Shown here: one piece after another, positions 1-12,376 of the stretch
How the letters are laid out: each line of letters starts with the position of its first letter
Numbering within the stretch: position 1 is the first letter of the stretch
From: a virus
Lineage: Duplodnaviria; Heunggongvirae; Uroviricota; Caudoviricetes
DNA: 13,339 bases
Reading direction: 5' to 3' (one strand)
IMG/VR virus record: IMGVR_UViG_2711768040_000006
The notes under the pieces: generated by a model
Seen by the model: the letters and a program-made list of their open reading frames with translations, nothing else
Database searches by the model: none
What the model was told of the DNA's origin: nothing
Position numbers and translations under genes: made by a program

Positions 1-258
1 ACACAAAATAAAGAACACAAATACAGAAAACAACAACACAATAAAAACAAGAGAACACAAGCTATAAATATTACACCAATAGAGAACACTAATCAAGAAC
101 ATATCAGCACATAATTTCCCATTATACGCGCGTATAATGGGAAATTATGTGCTGATATGTTCTTGATTAGTGTTCTCTATTGGTGTAATATTTATAGCTT
201 GTGTTCTCTTGTTTTTATTGTGTTGTTGTTTTCTGTATTTGTGTTCTTTATTTTGTGT
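1..258. repeat. Perfect palindrome (at least 258 bp, centre between 129 and 130); telRL-like protelomerase resolution site or hairpin-telomere fold-back
   Basis: Bases 1-129 are the exact reverse complement of 130-258, checked base by base. The window starts exactly at the mirror position, so the palindrome may extend further upstream. Confidence 0.85.
102..157. other. telO-like 56-bp core palindrome (TATCAGCAC...CCCATTATACGCGCGTATAATGGG...GTGCTGATA)
   Basis: Same length, same CGCGCG-centred core and same TATCAGCAC/GTGCTGATA outer arms as the N15 telO site as I recall it; inner arms differ slightly. Recollection only, not an alignment. Confidence 0.6.
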
Positions 259-487
259 GAATTATTATTGTTGTTTTACGATCTTTGATTGTGTTCTTTT
301 GTTGGTGAGGATTAGGAGAATAAATAGAGGAAACGTATCTCATTGATGATTTTCATCATGTTTCACTAGTTTTATACGATTTCCTTTCTTTTAAAAAATC
401 CTTTATTATCAATTTGTTATGATCTTGCCGTTGTTTTTTTTTGCATTTAAGGGATAAAACAAAAGATGATTTTGTTCAAATCTTCGT

Positions 488-586
488 CTTTGCCTTTTTT
501 GTTTTACTTTGCTTTTTCTATGTCAATTTGCTAGAAATATGCAAAGCAATAATTATTAAGCAAAGTTATAAGCTGGAGATGACAGT
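488..586 (+). promoter_or_regulatory. sopAB promoter/operator with four CTTTGC boxes (about 488-493 and 507-512 direct; 541-546 and 560-565 inverted) and a GGAG ribosome-binding site at about 574-577
   Basis: CTTTGC hexamers are the SopA autoregulatory motif in the F sopAB promoter. Here there are two direct and two inverted copies, each pair 19 bp apart, immediately upstream of the sopA ATG at 587. Exact -35/-10 not assigned. Confidence 0.5.
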
Positions 587-1756
587 ATGTCTTTGAAAAA
601 GTTATTACAAGATTGTGTTACGCGCGGTCAAGAAATGACCCAAGCAATTGCTATAGCTCAATTCGGTGATGATAGTCCTGAAGCTCGGCGTATCACGCGT
701 AGATGGGGGATAACTGAAGTAGCAGATTTAATTGGTGTAACTCCTCAAGCAATAAGAGATGCTGAGAAGAACGGGCGTTTACCTGCACCTGACTTTGAAA
801 TGAGAGGAAGAGTTGAACGTCGTGCCGGTTATACCATAGATCAAATCAATAGTATGCGAGCTGTTTTTGGCAACCCAAACCAACGGCCACAAGATAAAAA
901 CCCAGTTGTGCTTGCTGTTATGTCACACAAAGGCGGAGTTTATAAAACATCGTCTGCAGTACATCAGGCACAATGGCTAGCATTACAAGGTCATCGTGTT
1001 CTTTTAGTTGAAGGTAACGATCCTCAGGGAACAGCCTCCATGTATCACGGTTATGTACCTGATTTACATATACATGCCGAGGATACTTTACTGCCATTTT
1101 ACTTGGGCGAACGCGATAACGCTGAATATGCTATAAAACCAACATGCTGGCCTGGACTGGACATTATTCCTAGCTGCCTAGCTTTACACCGTATAGAAAC
1201 AGATCTCATGCAATATCATGCTCAGGGTAAATTGCCTCACCCTCCTCACCTGATGCTACGCGCAGCTATAGAATCAGTTTGGGATAACTACGATGTTATC
1301 GTTATAGATAGTGCTCCAAACCTCGGTACAGGAACCATTAACGTTGTTTGCGCAGCTGACGTTATCGTTGTTGCTACCCCTGCAGAATTATTTGATTACG
1401 CCTCTGTTCTACAGTTTTTCACAATGCTTCTCGATCTCCTAGAAAGCGTTGACCTAGGCGGATTTGAGCCGACCGTTCGCTTGCTTCTGACTAAATATAG
1501 TCTCACTACAGGAAATCAATCACGATGGATGGAAGAGCAAATAAGAAATACATGGGGATCAATGGTATTACGTCAGGTTGTACGCGTTACCGATGAAGTA
1601 GGTAAAGGTCAGATAAAAATGCGAACAGTATTTGAACAAGCGGCAAACCAGCGTTCAACACTTAATGCATGGAGAAATGCCGTCTCTATATGGGACCCTG
1701 TTTGTCGAGAAATTTTTGATGATCTAATAAAACCTCGCTGGGAGAACGAAGAATGA
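587..1756 (+). CDS. sopA: Partition ATPase SopA (ParA, type Ia, with N-terminal HTH extension)
   Basis: 389-aa ORF with deviant Walker A KGGVYKTS; extensive similarity to F-plasmid SopA as I recall it (AIAIAQF..DDSPEAR..ITRRW, VLLVEGNDPQGTASMYHG, KPTCWPGLDIIPSCLALHRIE). ATG at 587 with upstream GGAG. Confidence 0.93.
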   Translation: MSLKKLLQDCVTRGQEMTQAIAIAQFGDDSPEARRITRRWGITEVADLIGVTPQAIRDAEKNGRLPAPDFEMRGRVERRAGYTIDQINSMRAVFGNPNQRPQDKNPVVLAVMSHKGGVYKTSSAVHQAQWLALQGHRVLLVEGNDPQGTASMYHGYVPDLHIHAEDTLLPFYLGERDNAEYAIKPTCWPGLDIIPSCLALHRIETDLMQYHAQGKLPHPPHLMLRAAIESVWDNYDVIVIDSAPNLGTGTINVVCAADVIVVATPAELFDYASVLQFFTMLLDLLESVDLGGFEPTVRLLLTKYSLTTGNQSRWMEEQIRNTWGSMVLRQVVRVTDEVGKGQIKMRTVFEQAANQRSTLNAWRNAVSIWDPVCREIFDDLIKPRWENEE

Positions 1757-2742
1757 AACAACGCTCTCTTCTAAAAAATGCTCCGGATATTAATCGCATT
1801 ATGAGTAATAATCATCATGCACCTGAACATCAGCCGGTATCACCTATGGTTGGTGATTTAAAACGTCAACTGAGTTCATTAACCGGTAATAGCATAACTT
1901 TGCCAGTATGCGGACGTAATGTTAACTTTAAGTTAGAGACGATCCCCGCAGATAAAGTAGAAATGGCAACAATGGTATGGCTAGGTAATGAGCGTGATCA
2001 AGATTTATTAAATGAATCTTCTCTAGCTGATTTAATTCCATCTTTTCTAACTTCTGGGCAACAAAATCCGGCTTTCGCAAGAAAAGTGTCAGGTATTGTT
2101 GAAGTAGCTGATGGTTCTCGAAGACGTAAAGCAGCCATTATAACTGGATGCGATTATCGTGTTCTTATTGGCGATTTAGATGATGAACAAATGCAATGGT
2201 TATCGCAGATAGGCAACGACTATAGACCTATCAGCGCCTATGAAAGGGGGAAAAGATACCTGCGAAGGCTCCATGAATTTGACGGTAACGTAAAATCTTT
2301 AGCTGAAGCCGAAGGCGTGGATAGAAATATTATCAGCCGATGTATTAATACAGCCGGTTTACCTAAAGATATATTGGCAATATTTAACCATCCTGGTGAG
2401 TTATCAGCCAGAGCAGGAGACGCTCTTTTTAAAGCATATCAGGGACAGGAAGCAGCCATGAAAAATGCTGCATCTCAGTTGCTGAGGATGAAAAAATCAG
2501 GTGAAAGTTTAGATGCGCAAAGAATAATACAGGCTCTTCATGATTTCATTATTGTTGAGAAAAACAATTCACATGGAGAGAAAAGGGAAAAGAAATATGG
2601 AGACGGTGTTGTGGCGAAATATGGGAAAAATTTCACAACATTAAAATTAGATAACAGAAAAATACCATCGCACCTAATGAGTAAAATTGAATCTATTCTT
2701 GAGGAGGCGTTTGGAAATTCTTCCGATGTAAAAAATAACTAA
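1753..2742 (+). CDS. sopB: Partition centromere-binding protein SopB (ParB family)
   Basis: 329-aa ORF whose ATG overlaps the sopA stop (ATGA, translational coupling). SopB/ParB-like motifs: ITLPVCGR, WLGNERDQ, LIPSFLTSGQQNPAF, ADGSRRRKAA, HPGELSARAGDAL. Confidence 0.9.
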   Translation: MKQRSLLKNAPDINRIMSNNHHAPEHQPVSPMVGDLKRQLSSLTGNSITLPVCGRNVNFKLETIPADKVEMATMVWLGNERDQDLLNESSLADLIPSFLTSGQQNPAFARKVSGIVEVADGSRRRKAAIITGCDYRVLIGDLDDEQMQWLSQIGNDYRPISAYERGKRYLRRLHEFDGNVKSLAEAEGVDRNIISRCINTAGLPKDILAIFNHPGELSARAGDALFKAYQGQEAAMKNAASQLLRMKKSGESLDAQRIIQALHDFIIVEKNNSHGEKREKKYGDGVVAKYGKNFTTLKLDNRKIPSHLMSKIESILEEAFGNSSDVKNN

Positions 2743-2758
2743 TAGCAGAAAATAGAAT

Positions 2759-2796
2759 AGACCCCATCAGTTATAGATGGGGTCTTAATTTTATTC
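2759..2796. terminator. Bidirectional rho-independent terminator between the convergent sopB and small membrane-protein genes
   Basis: 10-bp stem AGACCCCATC / GATGGGGTCT with a 7-nt loop, T-rich on the + side (TAATTTTATTC) and A/T-rich on the other. Could alternatively be a protein-binding inverted repeat. Confidence 0.5.
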
Positions 2797-3093
2797 AAAA
2801 AATATAAATACAAGTAAACACGCCACCACCGGCACAGCAAAATCCATCAGGCTTGCTACATCCCACGCACGCGGATCAAAACCGCCCCACCACGGCATAT
2901 TCATTCGCTTGCCATGCCCGAACATTTCAATCCAGCGATATTCTGCCTGGGTATGTTCACGCGCAATGAAGAACGTACAACCGGCTATCGCCCCGTAAGC
3001 CCAGTTTCCGGTAAAAAGACCAACCAGTACCTGCGCAGCCACAGCACAAAGTGCATGAAGGAAAGGTGTTATATCCATTTTCATCCTACCCAA
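2791..3093 (-). CDS. Hypothetical small membrane protein (two predicted hydrophobic helices)
   Basis: 100-aa ORF with two long hydrophobic stretches (FLHALCAVAAQVLVGLFTGNWAYGAIAGCTFFIA and ASLMDFAVPVVACLLVFIFFE). The track start is TTG; an internal ATG (about 3075) preceded by AGGA is the more likely start. No family recognised. Confidence 0.45.
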   Translation of the reverse strand: MGRMKMDITPFLHALCAVAAQVLVGLFTGNWAYGAIAGCTFFIAREHTQAEYRWIEMFGHGKRMNMPWWGGFDPRAWDVASLMDFAVPVVACLLVFIFFE

Positions 3094-3120
3094 TAAAACG
3101 GGGCGCTCGGCCCCTTAATA
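3094..3120 (-). terminator. Putative rho-independent terminator downstream of the S74 fibre gene
   Basis: On the - strand, GGGGCCGAGCGCCCC hairpin followed by GTTTTATT, immediately after the stop at 3121. Confidence 0.4.
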
Positions 3121-4160
3121 TTATTTAGACGCAAGCGTCGCCTCAATTGCAGATAATCTTTGTTTTAATTCTGCATTTTCTTCTTCCAGTGCTGTTATTC
3201 TGTCGTCTGACTCTCTGGCTACCTGAACAAGCAAGCCAGTAACACCAGAATAATCTACTGTGTAATAACGTTCACCTTCTTCACCTTCCGATCCGCTTGC
3301 ACCGTCCTGATATTTCATTGCGGAACCTACAGCTTCTGGGATTGCTTCCAGAGCTTCCTGTGCAATGACACCAGCATAGGGCATACCGTTTTCTTTAAGC
3401 GTGTATGTATAGCCGTTCATTTTACGGATGCGGTCGGTTGCATTATCGATCACCTGAATGTTGTCTTTCAGATCCCGGTCGGAATGCTGGTTAAATGCGG
3501 TGGCATGACATGCACCATTAACGCTTAACATATAGGTGTTATCGGTATTTTTCTGCGCATAGAACATATAAGCGCCACCATCAACACCGACTTCATAAAC
3601 AACAGGACGGCTGGAGTGCCCCACAATTGAGCAGTAACACCAGCATAAGCGGTTCCCTGTGTGTTTAATGTCATGGTTGACCCATGATTGGCATATTTGA
3701 TCTGTAATGTGTCGGTGTAATCAAATTTAATAAGCGCGTTACTTCCACGCTTGCTGTATGACATAAGGCAGTTACCCATTTTGAGGTATCCGCTGTCACC
3801 GGGAAAAATCATCGTACCGCCATAAAGGTTGGTAAAGTCCCAGCAAATGTTTGTCCCGTTATCGTTCAGGTTAAGGCGCGCCATTGCGTTACCTGGACTG
3901 TCTATCCATTTTTTGAGGTATAGTTCGCAATACGCATCCTCAACACCTGCCGTCCTGTGAGTTGAGCGGAGTTTTCTCCCAAATATAGCTCCGCTAGTTG
4001 GCAATACCTGCTGATACCATGAAGCAGACCAGTCACCAACGATTTCATCTTTGCTGTCTACATATAATTTTGTTGCGTAGCTTCCTTGATCGTTTTTTAA
4101 TTTGCTAACGTCGGATTTTAGCGTTTTGATGTCATCAGGAATTACTGTCGATGTAGCCAT
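3121..4160 (-). pseudogene. Tail-fibre protein with C-terminal intramolecular chaperone (peptidase S74) domain, interrupted by a 1-nt frameshift
   Basis: Two overlapping - strand ORFs in different frames (3525..4160 and 3121..3624). The downstream one carries the S74 auto-chaperone signature HSDRDLKDNIQ..NGYTYTLKENGMPYAGVIAQEALEAIPEAV and a coiled C-terminus. Adding one G to the short G run near 3619-3622 would fuse them as ...TAQLWG-HSSRPVVYEV... (about 346 aa). Confidence 0.65.
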
Positions 4161-4532: not shown

Positions 4533-4537
4533 GACCC
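4533..4537. repeat. Target-site duplication GACCC (IS2, right flank copy)
   Basis: 5-bp direct repeat immediately outside the IS2 terminus; a 5-bp duplication is characteristic of IS2. Confidence 0.6.
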
Positions 4538-4548
4538 TGGATTTGCCC

Positions 4549-5454
4549 CTATATTTCCAGACACCTGTTATCACTTAACCCATTACTGGCCTGCTGCCGC
4601 AGATATTCCCGTGGCGAGCGATAACCCAGTGCACTATGCGGATGCCATTCGTTATAATGCTCGAACGCCTCTGCAAGGTTCTTTGCTGCCGTTAACCCGT
4701 CTGGTTTAGGCATGATACTGATGTAGTCACGCTTTATCGTTTTCACGAAGCTCTCTGCTATGCCGTTACTCTCCGGACTCCGCACCGCCGTGTTCTTCGG
4801 TTCAAGCCCCAACATCCGGGCAAACTGCCGTGTTTCATTAGCCCGGTAGCATGAACCATTATCCGTCAGCCACTCTACTGGAGACGCCGGAAGCTCGTTG
4901 CCGAAGCGGCGTTCCACCGCTCCCAGCATGACGTCCTGTACTGTTTCACTGTCGAAGCCGCCCGTAGTGACTGCCCAGTGCAGTGCCTCACGGTCACAGC
5001 AGTCCAGCGCGAACGTGACTCGCAGTTTTTCTCCGTTATCACAGCGGAACTCGAACCCGTCAGAGCACCATCGTTGATTGCTTTCTTTCACGGCCACTTT
5101 GCCAGTATGTGCCCGTTTCGATGGCGGTACAGCGGTTTTTCGCTCAAGCAACAGCGCATTCTGGCGCATGATCCGGTAAACACGTTTGGCATTGATCGCA
5201 GGCATACCATCAAGTTCGGCCTGTCTGCGAAGCAGCGCCCATACCCGACGATAACCATACGTGGGCAGCTCTCCGATAACATGGTGTATACGGAGAAGCA
5301 CATCCGTATCATCTGAGTGACGGCTGCGGCGACCATCTTTCCAGTCATCGGTTCGTCTGAGAATTACGTGCAACTGCGCACGCGACACCCGGAGACAACG
5401 GCTGACTAAGCTTACTCCCCATCCCCGGGCAATAAGGGCGCGTGCGCTATCCAC
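4549..5454 (-). CDS. insD: IS2 transposase OrfB (InsD, DDE integrase-like catalytic domain)
   Basis: 301-aa ORF matching IS2 InsD as I recall it ([28 protein letters not shown]...). Naturally expressed as an OrfAB fusion by -1 frameshifting. Confidence 0.9.
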
Positions 5455-5777
5455 TTTTTTGCACGCCCGTATTCAACGGCTTCTTTAAGGAGTTCATTTT
5501 CCATCGTTTTTTTGCCGAGCAGGCGCTGGAGTTCTTTAATCTGCTTCATGGCAGCAGCAAGTTCAGAGGCAGGAACGACCTGCTCTCCTGCGGCCACAGC
5601 AGTAAGACTTCCCTCCTGGTATTGCTTGCGCCAGAGAAATAACTGGCTGGCTGCCACACCGTGTTGCCGGGCAACAAGGGAGACCGTCATTCCCGGTTCA
5701 AAACTCTGCTGAACAATAGCGATCTTTTCCTGTGTAGTACGCCGTCTGCGTTTCTCCGGTCCTAAGACATCAATCAT
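5412..5777 (-). CDS. insC: IS2 OrfA (InsC, HTH DNA-binding protein)
   Basis: The track ORF 5412..5822 begins at an upstream alternative start. The canonical InsC begins at the internal ATG giving [24 protein letters not shown]... (121 aa). Confidence 0.85.
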
Positions 5778-5852
5778 CTGCTCTCCAATGACTAGTCTAA
5801 AAACTAGTATTAAGACTATCACTTATTTAAGTGATATTGGTTGTCTGGAGAT

Positions 5853-8165
5853 TCAGGGGGCCAGTCTAGACCCTGCTGTAGTCTGGCCTCCAATACGGAT
5901 GGTTGCAGAGTTCTGAATATAGGACCACGTAGTCTTTTTTTCGCTGGATATGCGCCCGTTACTTACTGAGCACGTAGACTGATCTGATTTTACACGCATC
6001 CCCATAACCATTTTTTCAAGCGATGCGTTTTCGTTTACCCGTCTGTTAGCTCCTCCAATATCGCAATAAGGAAATCCGTCTGGCCCATCTGCCGCGGATC
6101 CGAACCCAAGAATAATAGCCGCTCCGGTTTGATGACCGCCGGTATCAAAAACACGCGGCGCTGCATTTGGCGTTTTATACCAGTTCTTATGTACCTCACA
6201 AAGAACCGTAAAAGGAAGATTATAAAGATTATTCTTAATGGGAACTGTAACTATATCGCTTGCGCGGGTCGCCGCCGTCGTTCCTGATATAATAAAAGAT
6301 GATACACAAGGCCCATTTTCTACTTGTGGGGTGGCCAGATAAATATAGTCACCAGATACGGTTGCCCCGCCCTGCTTAGGAGAATACTGTATCTGAGAAC
6401 CTATTTTTAACTCCCCATCAATTGCCTGAATTGTTGCCTCTGCAAAAATCCATCCGGTAGCTTCGTCCTTTCTGACTCTCGCTGTAATCCTTGAGGCAGC
6501 ACCGCCTGTCATATTAATTTCAAGCGTTTGTGTATCAATATACGCATCACCAAGAAAAGTTGTTGCGCTACCGTCATATTTATCAAACCGGATACGCAAC
6601 CTTACCTGCAGTTCTGTTTTAAAACGACATGAGGTTGTCACGTATTTATTATAGCCTGAGACATCAACTGACTTTGTTGCAGCAATTGATGCCATATTAA
6701 TGGCTGAGGTTTGCCCAATCAGAGAATCGTTACAGACGAACTTTCCATAGGTAAAACCAAAACTATCCTTCCCGGTTTCGGGAACATCCATATTTGACGA
6801 TCGCCCCCAACTGGCAGGGTTTTCCGAATTGAGCATGTAGTTTGTTCTTTGCCCCTCAATAAGCAGGCCATCACGTTCAAATCGTGGCTCGTCAATGGCA
6901 GCCTCTGTCAGCACACCAGATTTGTTAATATAGGTTGCTTTCGATGCACGTTTAAACTTAACAATCTTGTCGCCAGGCATCGTTATTTCATCGTCACCAA
7001 TAACAATTTTTTTATATGACGGCGAAAAGCCCGTAATCATATCCAGCGAATCGTTAAATGGTATCCACACATCAGGCAGCGGCTGTAAGACATATTTATA
7101 CGGCTCCGCAGCCTGGCTTGCGTACTCTCTGGCTGCATCTTCGCTTGCTTTAGCTGCCGTCTGGCTTGCTGCCGATGCTTTCGCTGAGTTCGCAGCCGCT
7201 GTTTCGCTCACCTTTGCGTTGGTTTCACTGGTTTTTGCTGCTTTTTGACTGTTAGCTGATGCAGTGGCAGAAGCAGCCGCCGCGCTTGCAGAACTGGCTG
7301 CGGCACTCTCGCTTTGAGCCGCTGCATCCTGACTGCTTTTCGCCGCAGTTTCACTGGCTTTGGCATTCGTTTCGCTGGTCTTCGCTGCCGTCTGGCTGGA
7401 CTTTGCGTTAGTTTCACTCGTCTTCGCAGCTTTCTGGCTGTTAGCCGCAGCAGTTGCTGATCCAGCTGCTGAAGTCGCAGAACCGGCTGCCGCGCTCTCG
7501 CTTTGGGCTGCTGCAACCTGGCTGTTTTTTGCCGCAGTTTCACTGGCTTTAGCATTCGTTTCGCTGGTTTTCGCTGCCGTCTGGCTGGACTTTGCGTTGG
7601 TTTCGCTCGTCTTTGCGGCTGTCTCACTGTTTTTCGCGTTGGTTTCTGATTTTTTGGCTGCTGTCGCGGAGTTTGCCGATGCAGTCTGTGAGGCCGCTGC
7701 TGCCTGTGCGCTGTTAGCTGCATTCGTTTCTGAGGTTTTCGCCGCGTTCTTCGATGATGCCGCTGCGGTTTCGGATTTCTTTGCCGCCGCTGCGCTCTGA
7801 GAGGCGGCTTCGGCGTTGCGTGCCGCTTCTTCCACCATTTCCTCAAAACGACGCAATGCCTCCGGCATGACATCATCTTCCGTCATGGCACCGAGAAAAT
7901 CATTCAGCGTACCTGGTCTGGAACCTTCATAGACGGTAATGGTTCCGGCATGTGAAGGCGGAAAACCTTCAACAAGCAGGATAACGCTGTACTGGCCATA
8001 CTCAACATCCATGCTGTAACGCCCGGCTTCATCCGGATTTTCAGAGGCCACCGTGTTCACCAGTACCGTGGTGCTGTTACGCTTTGCCTTCAGTTGAATA
8101 GTGCAGTTCTGTATTGGTTTTCCCGCACCATCTTTCAGCACACCTGAGATTTTTACTGCTGCCAT
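5853..8165 (-). CDS. stf: Side tail fibre protein Stf (lambda Stf-like N-terminal domain, long Ala/Ser/Thr/Lys repeat shaft, distinct C-terminal domain); 3' end replaced by IS2 sequence
   Basis: N-terminus MAVKISGVLKDG.GKP.QNCTIQLKA.RNSTTV.VNTV.SENPDEAGRYSMDVEYGQYSVIL matches lambda Stf as I recall it. ATG at 8165 with GGAG 5 nt upstream (track ORF starts at GTG 8171). The reading frame runs into IS2 and stops at 5853 inside the element (...TTAGSRLAP*), so the native last ~26 codons are lost. Confidence 0.85.
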   Translation of the reverse strand: MAAVKISGVLKDGAGKPIQNCTIQLKAKRNSTTVLVNTVASENPDEAGRYSMDVEYGQYSVILLVEGFPPSHAGTITVYEGSRPGTLNDFLGAMTEDDVMPEALRRFEEMVEEAARNAEAASQSAAAAKKSETAAASSKNAAKTSETNAANSAQAAAASQTASANSATAAKKSETNAKNSETAAKTSETNAKSSQTAAKTSETNAKASETAAKNSQVAAAQSESAAAGSATSAAGSATAAANSQKAAKTSETNAKSSQTAAKTSETNAKASETAAKSSQDAAAQSESAAASSASAAAASATASANSQKAAKTSETNAKVSETAAANSAKASAASQTAAKASEDAAREYASQAAEPYKYVLQPLPDVWIPFNDSLDMITGFSPSYKKIVIGDDEITMPGDKIVKFKRASKATYINKSGVLTEAAIDEPRFERDGLLIEGQRTNYMLNSENPASWGRSSNMDVPETGKDSFGFTYGKFVCNDSLIGQTSAINMASIAATKSVDVSGYNKYVTTSCRFKTELQVRLRIRFDKYDGSATTFLGDAYIDTQTLEINMTGGAASRITARVRKDEATGWIFAEATIQAIDGELKIGSQIQYSPKQGGATVSGDYIYLATPQVENGPCVSSFIISGTTAATRASDIVTVPIKNNLYNLPFTVLCEVHKNWYKTPNAAPRVFDTGGHQTGAAIILGFGSAADGPDGFPYCDIGGANRRVNENASLEKMVMGMRVKSDQSTCSVSNGRISSEKKTTWSYIQNSATIRIGGQTTAGSRLAP
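5869..5873. repeat. Target-site duplication GACCC (IS2, left flank copy)
   Basis: Second copy of the 5-bp direct repeat flanking IS2; coordinates +/-1. Confidence 0.6.
7140..7800 (-). repeat. Intragenic tandem repeats in the stf shaft region (about 180-bp units; protein repeats of the AAKTSETNAKxSxTAAK type)
   Basis: Near-identical DNA segments recur (e.g. about 7330-7470 vs 7510-7650). The translation shows two ~60-aa near-duplicate blocks plus many shorter SETNAK iterations. Confidence 0.7.
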
Positions 8166-8176
8166 ATCCACTCCAC

Positions 8177-8229: not shown

Positions 8230-8829
8230 TCAGAATTTATAACCGACACCCACGATGAAACCGTCAGTGCGCCAGTCACCACTGCCGGAGCCTTCATAAG
8301 CAATATCAATGGCCACGGATTCGGTCGGGTTAAACTGCACGCCAGCTCCCCACGCCAGAGACGTGTTGCTGTGGCGATCATCATCACTTCCGGTCAGCAC
8401 ATCGTGCGTTTTCCCCTTGTTGTCAGTTACGCGGAGATAATCCCCGGAGAACGTCGACACCCGGCTGTAAGCCACACCTGCCATCGCATAAGCACTGAAC
8501 CATTCATTCACGCGTACAGATGGCCCCGCCATCATGCTGAACCAGCGGTTACGCACGGAATCTTCATGCCAGCGGGTATCGCTGTAATGCGTTTTTTGCT
8601 CATCTTTGGCATTGGCATAACTGAATGACGTCACCAGCCCCAGCGTGTCCGTAAATTCATAACGGTATTTCACGTTAATGCCCTTCAGGTCATCACTGCC
8701 TGGCATATCAGTATGGGTCTGAAGATACCCGGCGCTTAGTGTGGACTGATGCTCTGCTGCGCTCGCTGGCGTACCAGCGGCAACCAGCCAGACTACTGCG
8801 GACAGAATAACAGCACATAATTTACGCAT
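8230..8829 (-). CDS. lom: Lom outer-membrane protein (Ail/Lom/PagC beta-barrel family)
   Basis: 199-aa ORF with signal peptide (MRKLCAVILSAVVWLVAAGTPASA) and a C-terminal ...GVGYKF aromatic beta-barrel terminus. Position between J and stf is as in lambda. Confidence 0.9.
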   Translation of the reverse strand: MRKLCAVILSAVVWLVAAGTPASAAEHQSTLSAGYLQTHTDMPGSDDLKGINVKYRYEFTDTLGLVTSFSYANAKDEQKTHYSDTRWHEDSVRNRWFSMMAGPSVRVNEWFSAYAMAGVAYSRVSTFSGDYLRVTDNKGKTHDVLTGSDDDRHSNTSLAWGAGVQFNPTESVAIDIAYEGSGSGDWRTDGFIVGVGYKF

Positions 8830-8896: not shown

Positions 8897-11800
8897 TCAG
8901 CTGATACTGATGCCTGCGGTGGCTTTCTTCATCACCACAACCAGCAAATCGCTGATACTTGCTGTGGGATACCAGTCATTTACCAGCCATGCTGACACCG
9001 AAAACTCCAGCGTCATGTGACCGTGACCGGCAGGCATATCAATAACGCCACTGTAAATCAGCGTATTATCCAGCGCGGTACGGTTATAAATTTCAGCACC
9101 GTTTTTCCGCACTATCAGACGGCATGAGGAGTAAATATCAGTATGCTCTCTCTCATGTTTAGCGCCGCTGAATGCCACCGCCGGAATAACAATCTGCCGG
9201 TCAAACGGCTGATCGTCATAAACCCTGACGGTAATGGTCCCTGATGGCCACCGTTCCGGTGCACGGGAGTCACGGGGGAAAGCTTTGCCCACTGTTTTAA
9301 CGAGATCGCCTTCAATCTGGTTCGCGGACAGTTTTCCCAGAACCCGGCAGTTCTCGTTAATCGTGACGTTGTTGAGCGTCCCGGAGTTCGCATTCACGTT
9401 ACCGCTGATATCGGCATTTTTTGCCGTCAGCCGCCCGTCCGGTGTCAGGGAAAATGCCGGAGGATTACCGCCGCTGGTAATGGTGGGAGCCGTCAGATAT
9501 TTCAGGAACACTTCATTCATAAATATCTGATCGCCCTGACCAACAAACATCGGCTTTGTGTTGCCATTCGCAGGATTAATCATCGCAATCCTGTCCGCCG
9601 CCAGCAGCACCTGACTCTGCATGCCGTCAGGGGTATTCTCAATACCGGCACCAATACCCGCGATATAAAGGCGTCCGTCCTGCATCTGCTGCAGCTTCAC
9701 AGCCCACATGCTGTTCAGGTTATTATTTGTATCAACCTGAACCTTCTGTATCTGCTGAATTGCCGCACTCTGGTCTTCCAGTTTCTTATTGACGGTCTGC
9801 GTGATTTCATTGCTGACATCCGTAATGGACGTCCTGATTTCAGCCAGGTCAGGCGCAAGCTGACCGTTATCAATCTGCGTCCACAGCTCCTGAGCCAGAT
9901 GGCTTTGCCCTATCTCTCCTTTGAAAAAATCCAGATAGCCGGATGCATCATCACTCGGCTGGCCAACAGCCTCCACAAATGCCGATTTGCCAACGGTGTT
10001 CACACTGCGGATATAAAAGTAATAATCATGGCCCGGTTTGATATTGATACTGGCGGCTATCCAGTACAGCGCCGTGCCAAGATAGCGTGCTGTGGTTTCA
10101 ACCTGCCTGATATCCGCAATCCGCTTTTCCGAGAACCAGAACTCAAACTGTACCGTCGGATCATAAACCGCAAGATACGGCGTGGCAGTTATCTGAAAAT
10201 AGCCCGGCGTCAGCTCAATCCGCGACGGCGCTGCCGGTGCGGCAATCCGGAACGATACCGACGCCGGATCGCCCTGCTGCCCCCACGCATTTACTGCCCG
10301 GACTGTCAGCCTGTAGTTCCCCAGCGCCAGTTGCCTGAAGCGGTATGTGGTTTCCGTCGTCCTGGCCGTGCTGACCAGCCGCTCACTGCCGTCGTCCGCT
10401 GCCACGGTCAGACGGAGCAGGAAGCTCACGCCCTTCACCACCTTCGGCGTGTCCCAGCGCGCCAGCACCTGGTATTCCCCGCTGTCTGCGGTGACTTCGG
10501 CGGTCAGGTGCTGCACCGCTGGCGGCGTGACACCATTCACCGTGCCGCTCTGGTCGCCGTCAAAGTGCGCCCCGTTATCCACGATGGCTTCTTTCTCCGG
10601 CACATGCTGCACGGCAGTGATGGCATACGTGCCGTCATCGTTCTCACGGATACTCACACAGCGGAACAGGCGCTGGCGCAGCGTCGGCAGCTTCAGCCCC
10701 CATACGCTGTATTCGGCAACACCGTCAGGAACACGGCTCACTTTTACCTTCACGCCGTCGGTGACGGACTGAACCTCCACGCTGACCGGATTGCCACTTC
10801 CGTCAACCAGGCTTATCAGCGTGGTACCGGAGGATGGCAGCGTGATTTCACGGTCGAGCGTCAGCGTCCGGGTCTGGCTGTTCACCGCCAGCACGCGACC
10901 ACCGATGCTGATACCGGCATAGTCATCATCACAGATTTCAATGACATCGCCCGGTACATGGCGAAGCCCTTCGGCACCCACGCTGAAGTCCACGGTCTGC
11001 GTTTCCAGCAGTTCCGTTTTAATCAGCCACAGCCCGGCGCGGTGCGCCTGCCCCCGGCTGGTACAGCCAAAGGCATCCATCTTCGTAACATTACGACCGT
11101 AACGGGCAATGGCCTGCGTATCTTCAACAAGCTCTGTCGCCGTCTCCCAGCCGTTGTTCGGGTCAATCCAGTTCACCTCAACGGCATTATGGCGGTCCTT
11201 CAGGGCGCTGAAGCTGTAGCGGAACGGCGCGCCATCATCCGGCATCACCACATTACTGCGGTTATAGGTCCACACCTTATCTGATGGTCGGTCCTGCACG
11301 AACGTCAGCGTCTGCCCGTTCCATACCGGCATACAGCGCATCGCCGAGCAGAAATCACTGAGCACATCCCACGCCTTGCGCTGTGTGGTCAGGTACGCAT
11401 TACAGGTGATGCGCGGCTCCATGCCGCCAAAGCCGTCCGGCACTGACTGGTCGCAGTACTGGCCGATGACATACAGCGCCCATTTATCCACATCCGCCGC
11501 ACCAAGACGTTTCCCCATGCCGTAGCGCGGATGGGTCAGCATATCCCACAGACACCAGGCCATGTTGTTGCTGTATGCCGGTTTAAACGTTCCGTCCCAG
11601 ATACCGCTGTATTGCCGCGTCTGCGGGTTATAATTCGACGGCACCTGCAGAATACGCCCGCGCAGATGATAATTACGGCTCACCTGCTGGCTGCCGAACT
11701 GCTCCGAGTCCACCTGCACGCCGACCAGTGCCGTGTTCGGGTAGCACTGTTTCACATCGATGATTTCGGTGTATGACGACCAGAGCGTTTTGTTCTGCAG

Positions 11801-12376
11801 CTGGTCTGTGGTGCTGTCCGGCGTCATCCTGCGCATCCGGATATTAAACGGGCGCGGCGGCAGGTTATCCACCACCACCGAGGCCAGATACTGCGAGGTG
11901 GTTTTGCCTTTAATGGTGATATCTTTTTCCGTCACCCAGCCACCGTTACGCTGTATCTGAACCAGCAGGCGGACTTCCGACGGATTCCGGTCCCCCTTTG
12001 AGGTGGTTTCCACCAGTGCCTGCACACCGAAGGTAAAGCGCAGACGGTCGATGTTTGCAGACGTGATGGTCCGGGTAATCGGCGTGTCGTATTTCACTTC
12101 CGTACCCAGCACCGTCTCGGAACCGGAGGATTCAAATCCCTCCGGCGGTGTCTGCTCCTGCTCACCTGCCCGGAACACCACCGTGACACCGGAGATGTTG
12201 GTATTCCCCTCACTGTCCAGCACCGGTGTACTGTTCAGCAGCACGCTTTTTAATCCATCCACCGGACCTTCTATCGGCCCTTCGCTGATGGCATCGATCA
12301 CACTCAGTAACTGCGTGGATTTCAGGTTGTCCTTCGCTTCGCGCGGGGTATGCCCCTTACTGCTGCCTTTACCCAT
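8897..12376 (-). CDS. J: Tail tip / host-specificity protein J (central tail fibre)
   Basis: 1159-aa ORF. N-terminal about 800 aa are near-identical to lambda J as I recall it ([45 protein letters not shown]...), with fibronectin-like middle repeats. The C-terminal ~350 aa diverge from lambda. Confidence 0.93.

Follow-up and report, generated by a model that had tools for sequence, protein, structure and literature searches.

N15-like phage-plasmids are a recognised group, and the locus described here adds no new biology to it, N15-type telomeres, protelomerase and replication being already well characterised. The mechanism by which the protelomerase TelN acts on its target telRL has been described (PMC10612081, PMC12624138), and a passage of the latter source, citing Deneke 2002, mentions additional repeats in the DNA that flanks the 56-bp core of the N15 site. 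The gene order of N15 is tail genes, sopB, sopA, telRL and telN, and the N15 record annotates the cut at the dyad of the site. RepA proteins of the N15 type are primase-helicases with an internal ori. In Borrelia, the ends of contigs that wrap around a hairpin show an inverted repeat with the telomere at its centre, a feature that is diagnostic of a hairpin end (PMC10353223).

The DNA analysed here, a stretch of 13,339 bp referred to throughout as the window, is the exact reverse complement of the entire draft contig CXXD01000035.1 (13,339 bp; assembly GCA_001269005.1), to which only an exact-protein lookup of its tail protein J led; collections of phages, plasmids and complete E. coli genomes returned no exact match to the window. 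Since the window is a complete contig, its position 1 is a contig end, with nothing assembled upstream. We consider it very likely that this end of the window is the closed hairpin (telL) of an N15-type linear plasmid-prophage of E. coli, and that the long palindrome found there arose by read-through of the hairpin tip.

The palindrome and its probable protelomerase site

Positions 1–129 and 130–258 of the window are exact reverse complements of each other, with 0 mismatches in a base-level check, and the palindrome that they form reaches the window start. A scan of the whole 13,339-bp sequence returned other perfect palindromes with arms of at most 6 bp. When folded as a single strand, positions 1–258 give one unbroken hairpin of −145.2 kcal/mol, compared with −22.2 ± 3.3 kcal/mol for 200 shuffles of the same segment (z = −37.6). 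A palindrome of 258 bp cannot be chance, and the claim of the initial annotation, that a perfect palindrome of at least this length is present, is borne out in full (129 + 129 bp, 0 mismatches, next-best arm 6 bp).

At the centre of the palindrome lies a 22-bp telO core (CCATTATACGCGCGTATAATGG, positions 119–140, dyad at 129/130), which is the same as the central 22 bp of telRL in both N15 and phiKO2. Alignments to telRL sites place this core within a 56-bp protelomerase target (102–157) in the telLL form, that is, composed of two telL half-sites. Over these 56 bp, the window is identical at 50 positions to the telRL of N15 (annotated as a repeat_region), at 48 to that of phiKO2 and at 55 to the uncut telRL of a close relative (L004, described below), and the cut annotated in the N15 record falls at the same position as 129/130 in the window. 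The initial annotation had seen the architecture of the N15 telO site in the central 56 bp and had proposed an alignment to the N15 and phiKO2 sites. The alignment agrees with it on the match itself, the 22-bp core being identical in all three (22/22) and the longer site at 50/56 and 48/56, and corrects the naming: telRL denotes the 56-bp unit as a whole, telO the 22 bp at its centre. A telRL-type target comprises telO, the 14-bp inverted repeats on either side of it and the outer bases. The half-site at 130–157 (plus strand) would form the actual last 28 bp of the linear replicon; it agrees with the sop-side half of N15 telRL at 26 of 28 positions and with the telN-side half at 24 of 28. Judging from the similarity of the sites, we infer that a cognate TelN would cleave and rejoin the DNA at 102–157.

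Immediately beyond the half-site, between positions 158 and 297, the arm carries two families of short repeats that are probable accessory TelN-binding sites: five copies of TGTTCT, all in one orientation (plus strand; starts at 158, 171, 202, 242 and 292), and four copies of TTGTGTT (plus strand; starts at 199, 218, 239 and 289). Out of 20,000 shuffles, none reached five copies of TGTTCT, and 12 reached four copies of TTGTGTT. Measured from the tip, the TGTTCT copies lie at +29, 42, 73, 113 and 163 in the window, and TGTTCY copies at +29, 61, 103, 116 and 151 in the sop-side arm of N15. The repeats at 158–297 probably correspond to the additional flanking repeats of N15, and by analogy may play a similar part here. 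In the telN-side arms of N15 and L004 (3327–3527) the first two flanking repeats are inverted, with AGAACA or GGAACA at +32 and +45 from the tip. Every sop-side copy, in contrast to this telN-side inversion, is a forward TGTTCY, an asymmetry that is conserved in N15 and L004.

Gene content of the telomere arm

The first genes inward from the telomere are those of a partition module. sopA (587–1756, plus strand) encodes a ParA-type partition ATPase of 389 aa (Pfam AAA_31/CbiA) with 93.3% identity over 387 aa to N15 gp28, and is followed by sopB (1753–2742, plus strand), which encodes a centromere-binding ParB-type protein of 329 aa (Pfam SoPB_HTH) with 73.7% identity to N15 gp27; the two genes have the same order and orientation as in N15. 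A motif scan located four CTTTGC motifs 5' of sopA, arranged as two inverted pairs within 488–565 (488 and 507 on the plus strand, 541 and 560 on the minus strand), which form a putative sop promoter/operator and which, we assume, resemble the SopA operator repeats of plasmid F. A sigma-70 scan of positions 130–3200 yielded just two weak matches, a number below that of shuffled sequence, and neither lies upstream of sopA. A terminator scan detected a bidirectional terminator-like stem-loop at 2759–2785, between sopB and the convergent tail-fibre genes.

The remainder of the window is occupied by tail genes on the minus strand. The distal tail-fibre gene (3121–4160, minus strand; ORFs and Pfam), which encodes a Peptidase_S74 chaperone domain, is split into two overlapping ORFs by a 1-bp deletion near position 3616, where the sequence is GGAGTGCCCC in the window versus GGAGTTGCCCC in L004; in L004 and in a second close relative (L003) the gene is a single ORF of 1,041 nt. 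The stf-like side tail-fibre gene (5853–8171, minus strand; Pfam phage_tail_N; 792 aa in L003) has its 3' end truncated by an IS3-family element of 1,331 bp (4538–5868, minus strand; Pfam HTH_Tnp_1/rve), which is flanked by a 5-bp target duplication (GACCC at 4533–4537 and 5869–5873) and is not found in the relatives. From its size and ends (TGGATTTGCCCC...) we take this element to be IS2-like. Owing to the IS3-family element, the window has matches in over 5,000 plasmid records. The IS insertion plus the 1-bp deletion, the latter being either a real mutation or an assembly error, suggests that the side fibres are non-functional. An IS3-family element in a tail-fibre gene is also carried by the relative p13TMH22-2.

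Further inward, again on the minus strand, are lom, for an Ail/Lom outer-membrane protein (8230–8829; Pfam), the gene of the tail-tip host-specificity protein J (8897–12376; 1,159 aa), and tail assembly gene I together with the 3' part of K (C40 peptidase), the last being cut by the contig end (12437–13339); J and I/K were assigned from ORFs and homology. The J protein is 100% identical to the J of chromosomal lambdoid prophages (L012 and L013) that adjoin an integrase gene and a gene of the Dus family (tRNA-dihydrouridine synthase, PF01207). A recent exchange of tail modules between integrated prophages and the linear plasmid-prophage is indicated.

Mirrored arms in related records and the origin of the palindrome

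The turn at the telO dyad is shared by the window and a series of public records (L001, L002, L010, L011, L017–L022 and L024–L026), in which the mirror is 129 bp (the window), 7,249, 15,290, 16,310 or at least 15,129 bp long, or spans the whole replicon. The two arms show no differences in L002, 0 mismatches but 26–57 gaps in L010 and L011, and 17 mismatches with 219 gaps in L001; in L010 and L011 one arm is annotated as ridden with frameshifts, and the differences between their arms are sequencing noise rather than divergence. A turning point that is held in common, together with mirrors of arbitrary length located at record ends, is the signature of wraparound at hairpin telomeres.

The clearest of these records is NZ_CP101203.1 (L002; pEC21Z151-14K), a RefSeq complete circular plasmid of 14,498 bp that is its own exact reverse complement (7,249 + 7,249 bp, 0 differences) and that contains two copies of sopAB but lacks any replication gene. 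The record does not represent a plasmid but results from wraparound at the telL arm of pEC21Z151-46K, an element of the same strain; this 46-kb element encodes a protelomerase and a CyRepA1-family RepA, and its record ends 47 bp short of the tip. NZ_CP019258.1 (L011 and L016; 75,007 bp, filed as circular) begins at its position 1 with a mirror of 15,290 bp and has its protelomerase genes mirrored at the other end, which leaves a unit of ~46.4 kb. CP088430.1 (L001; 91.5 kb, filed as circular) is about twice the unit length, and the same turning point is seen in seven further contigs that encode the identical SopA; one of these is a SPAdes-style contig of 90,054 bp (L019; ERZ24774947 NODE_130). 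The 75-, 91.5- and 90-kb records thus represent a linear element of ~46 kb whose sequence wraps around at one telomere or at both.

The chromosome record of YDC107 (NZ_CP025707.1; L010) carries an indel-ridden mirror of 16,310 bp from its first base. Over positions 1–50000 of this record the mirror is followed by phage-plasmid tail and head genes and then, at ~42.9 kb, by Qin-type prophage genes (ynfO, ydfO and gnsB), a transition that probably reflects a chimeric junction formed at lambdoid sequence common to the two. We rejected a true chromosomal integration of the arm in YDC107, given that the record starts with the 16.3-kb indel-ridden mirror and merges into the Qin-type region via shared lambdoid genes. 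telLL junctions also lie inside very large contigs, at ~369–378 kb of a 2.72-Mb contig of GCA_949281555.1 (L020 and L021) and in a 293-kb contig of GCA_949281495.1 (L024 and L025), and in both cases the two arms differ in their genes once past sopB and the first fibre genes. A false junction of two different lambdoid prophage regions, brought about by hairpin wraparound, is suggested for these two contigs.

In the reading that we favour, a hairpin telomere read around its tip, the window from position 130 onward would be the left arm of an N15-type (Ravinvirus-like) linear plasmid-prophage of E. coli, with a covalently closed hairpin telL forming its physical end and the tip located at the dyad 129/130. 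The hairpin would be created by TelN, encoded at the opposite end of the replicon: the enzyme would bind its 56-bp palindromic target and make staggered cuts around the dyad, whereupon the self-complementary overhangs would fold back and each strand would be rejoined to its complement, yielding the telL and telR hairpins; after replication, the same TelN would resolve the telLL and telRR junctions. Templates running round the closed tip would lead the assembler to continue for 129 nt along the complementary strand until the contig end, and the assembly does stop 129 nt beyond the dyad. Positions 1–129, the reverse complement of 130–258 at the contig end, are a wraparound copy of the telL arm in mirror orientation, generated when sequencing passed round the hairpin tip, and not separate replicon DNA. 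The protelomerase gene is absent from the 13.3-kb contig itself. Relatives that are 99–100% identical in the arm (L003, L004 and L023) carry both a protelomerase and an N15-type RepA of the CyRepA1 family, the latter being present in L016 as well; telN and repA are presumably also present in assembly GCA_001269005.1, and the sequence leads us to expect a physical hairpin in this strain. A point against this reading is that the 129-nt length of the mirror follows from no assembler k-mer rule that we could construct: a bidirected de Bruijn graph would be expected to stop ~(k−1)/2 past the dyad (~63 nt for k = 127), and no common k yields 129.

Three configurations of the site have the same core, namely uncut telRL, telLL (whether replicated or read through) and telRR. 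In L004 (p19KM1803_4, NZ_CP151021.1, 45.9 kb), which is 99.4% identical to positions 103–4148 of the window, telN and sopA flank the site on opposite sides, and the uncut telRL is a perfect palindrome over 27 + 27 bp only, its right flank being the window arm and its left flank unrelated. A telRR mirror whose arms extend for at least 368 bp, flanked on either side by protelomerase genes, is seen in phage YDC107_1 (CP025712.1; L008), and the telN end of NZ_CP019258.1 (L016) shows one as well. Because positions 1–102 mirror the sop-side arm, the window has the telLL configuration. One could nevertheless propose that it contains the uncut telRL of a circular or virion phage genome with telN to the left, considering that the central 54–56 bp are telRL sequence and that some relatives (L004 and L023) were assembled in uncut form. 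However, a true telRL of this lineage is palindromic for 27 bp per arm and its left flank (...CTTTGTTCTGAAAA) leads to telN, whereas positions 1–102 are the exact mirror of the sop-side arm and unlike the telN-side flank of L004; the uncut site is excluded on these grounds, and its probability is virtually nil.

A telLL junction could also have existed as real duplex DNA in the DNA preparation and been assembled from it, whether it belonged to a head-to-head intermediate of replication or to an unresolved dimer. The sequence predicted in that case is identical to the one observed, and either origin implies a hairpin telomere. The replication intermediate of N15 is dimeric, with telLL and telRR junctions that are resolved by TelN, but such junctions are transient substrates of the enzyme (PMC12624138). 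Records of the full double length exist (CP088430.1, 91.5 kb; NODE_130, 90,054 bp), yet the topology of a monomer with hairpin ends is that of a single circular strand, which on its own already gives a double-length contig. The mirrors, moreover, have arbitrary lengths across assemblies, begin at record ends and differ between their arms by indel noise, as in read-limited wraparound. Long perfect palindromes are, in addition, attacked by SbcCD in E. coli, and altogether we regard a duplex origin as unlikely. It is very unlikely that unresolved telLL DNA accumulates in this strain, for instance as head-to-head dimers that persist because TelN is limiting or defective, in a former phage that lives purely as a plasmid; if it did, the accumulation would sit in an element with decaying tail-fibre genes (the IS2 insertion and the frameshift). 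A further rival is an artefact that has nothing to do with a telomere, namely a fold-back chimera from the library, or else a circular replicon that stably carries a long palindrome. Some library types do produce fold-back chimeric reads, and several of the related records are filed as circular. The turn, however, coincides to the base with the telO dyad in the window as in no fewer than 12 further independent assemblies, where chance chimeras would turn at random positions, and pEC21Z151-14K is its own exact reverse complement and has sopAB but no replication gene, so that we find such an explanation hardly credible.

Hairpin read-through at telL accordingly remains our preferred account of the window. 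The initial annotation had described a linear-plasmid prophage end, a claim now supported by the telO/telRL core, the sopAB genes in N15 order and relatives at least 99% identical that carry a protelomerase and RepA. It had left the choice between a palindrome extending further upstream and a fold-back read-through with telL at 129/130. The second option stands, on the strength of the whole-contig match, the 27 + 27-bp telRL of the relative and the shared turning point; the first does not, since position 1 is the contig end, as far as the assembly shows.

Use in curation and comparison with known systems

The element is an ordinary and very common N15-type phage-plasmid, combined with a known assembly artefact. 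Exactly this arm recurs in thousands of public contigs, the same SopA being found in 2,565 indexed blocks of the contig collection, and a search for TelN homologues, with a near-identical relative as query, led to a 90%-identity cluster (P0001) of 682 members, whose representative lies on an unrelated 5-kb contig, and to large sister clusters from Enterobacter, Klebsiella, Citrobacter and Salmonella. Curators of draft assemblies can recognise a hairpin-ended linear replicon simply and reliably by a contig that terminates in a perfect inverted repeat with CCATTATACGCGCGTATAATGG at its centre. Wraparound has placed wrong records in reference collections, among them the 14,498-bp 'circular plasmid', the 75-kb and 91-kb 'circular' versions and the chromosome record that starts with a 16-kb mirror, and statistics of plasmids by size or topology that make use of such records would be wrong.

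Among the described systems, N15 (Ravinvirus N15, NC_001901) shares with the window an identical 22-bp telO, 50 of the 56 bp of telRL, the succession of tel, sopA, sopB and convergent tail genes, similar partition proteins (SopA 93%, SopB 74%) and TGTTCY repeats at similar distances from the tip. It differs by six substitutions in the outer part of the 56-bp site. The uncut telRL of the present lineage is also perfect over 54 of 56 bp, whereas that of N15 has internal mismatches and a perfect arm of 11 bp. The tail genes of the window, in turn, are ~96% identical to those of lambda-like coliphages (2G7b and phage 21) and are not those of N15, and the combination of lambda-like tail genes with N15-type sopAB makes the element a mosaic.

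Closer still are four E. coli N15-like phage-plasmids, PhiR46_1 (PV340565.1), YDC107_1 (CP025712.1), pEC21Z151-46K (NZ_CP101200.1) and p19KM1803_4 (NZ_CP151021.1), in which the telomere arm and sopAB are 99–100% identical to the window, and from which the window differs by its IS2-like insertion in stf and the 1-bp deletion in the distal fibre gene. In PhiR46_1 the 22-bp tel site is annotated at the same end (PV340565.1, 46269–46290). That record names the sop-side end 'telR site', which is inconsistent with the N15 convention, where this end is telL.

The Klebsiella phage phiKO2, with its telRL/TelK system, has an identical telO core and 48 of the 56 bp of the site in common with the window, and the TelN of L003 aligns over 85% of its length with the phiKO2 protelomerase entry, at 81% identity; phiKO2 differs in its host genus and in its flanking repeats, which are of the TTGTGTTA type and lack TGTTCY. 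The Borrelia wraparound contigs, finally, resemble the window in that an inverted repeat at the contig end is centred on the telomere, but they have another telomere consensus and another resolvase, ResT, and their description concerns PacBio contigs (PMC10353223).
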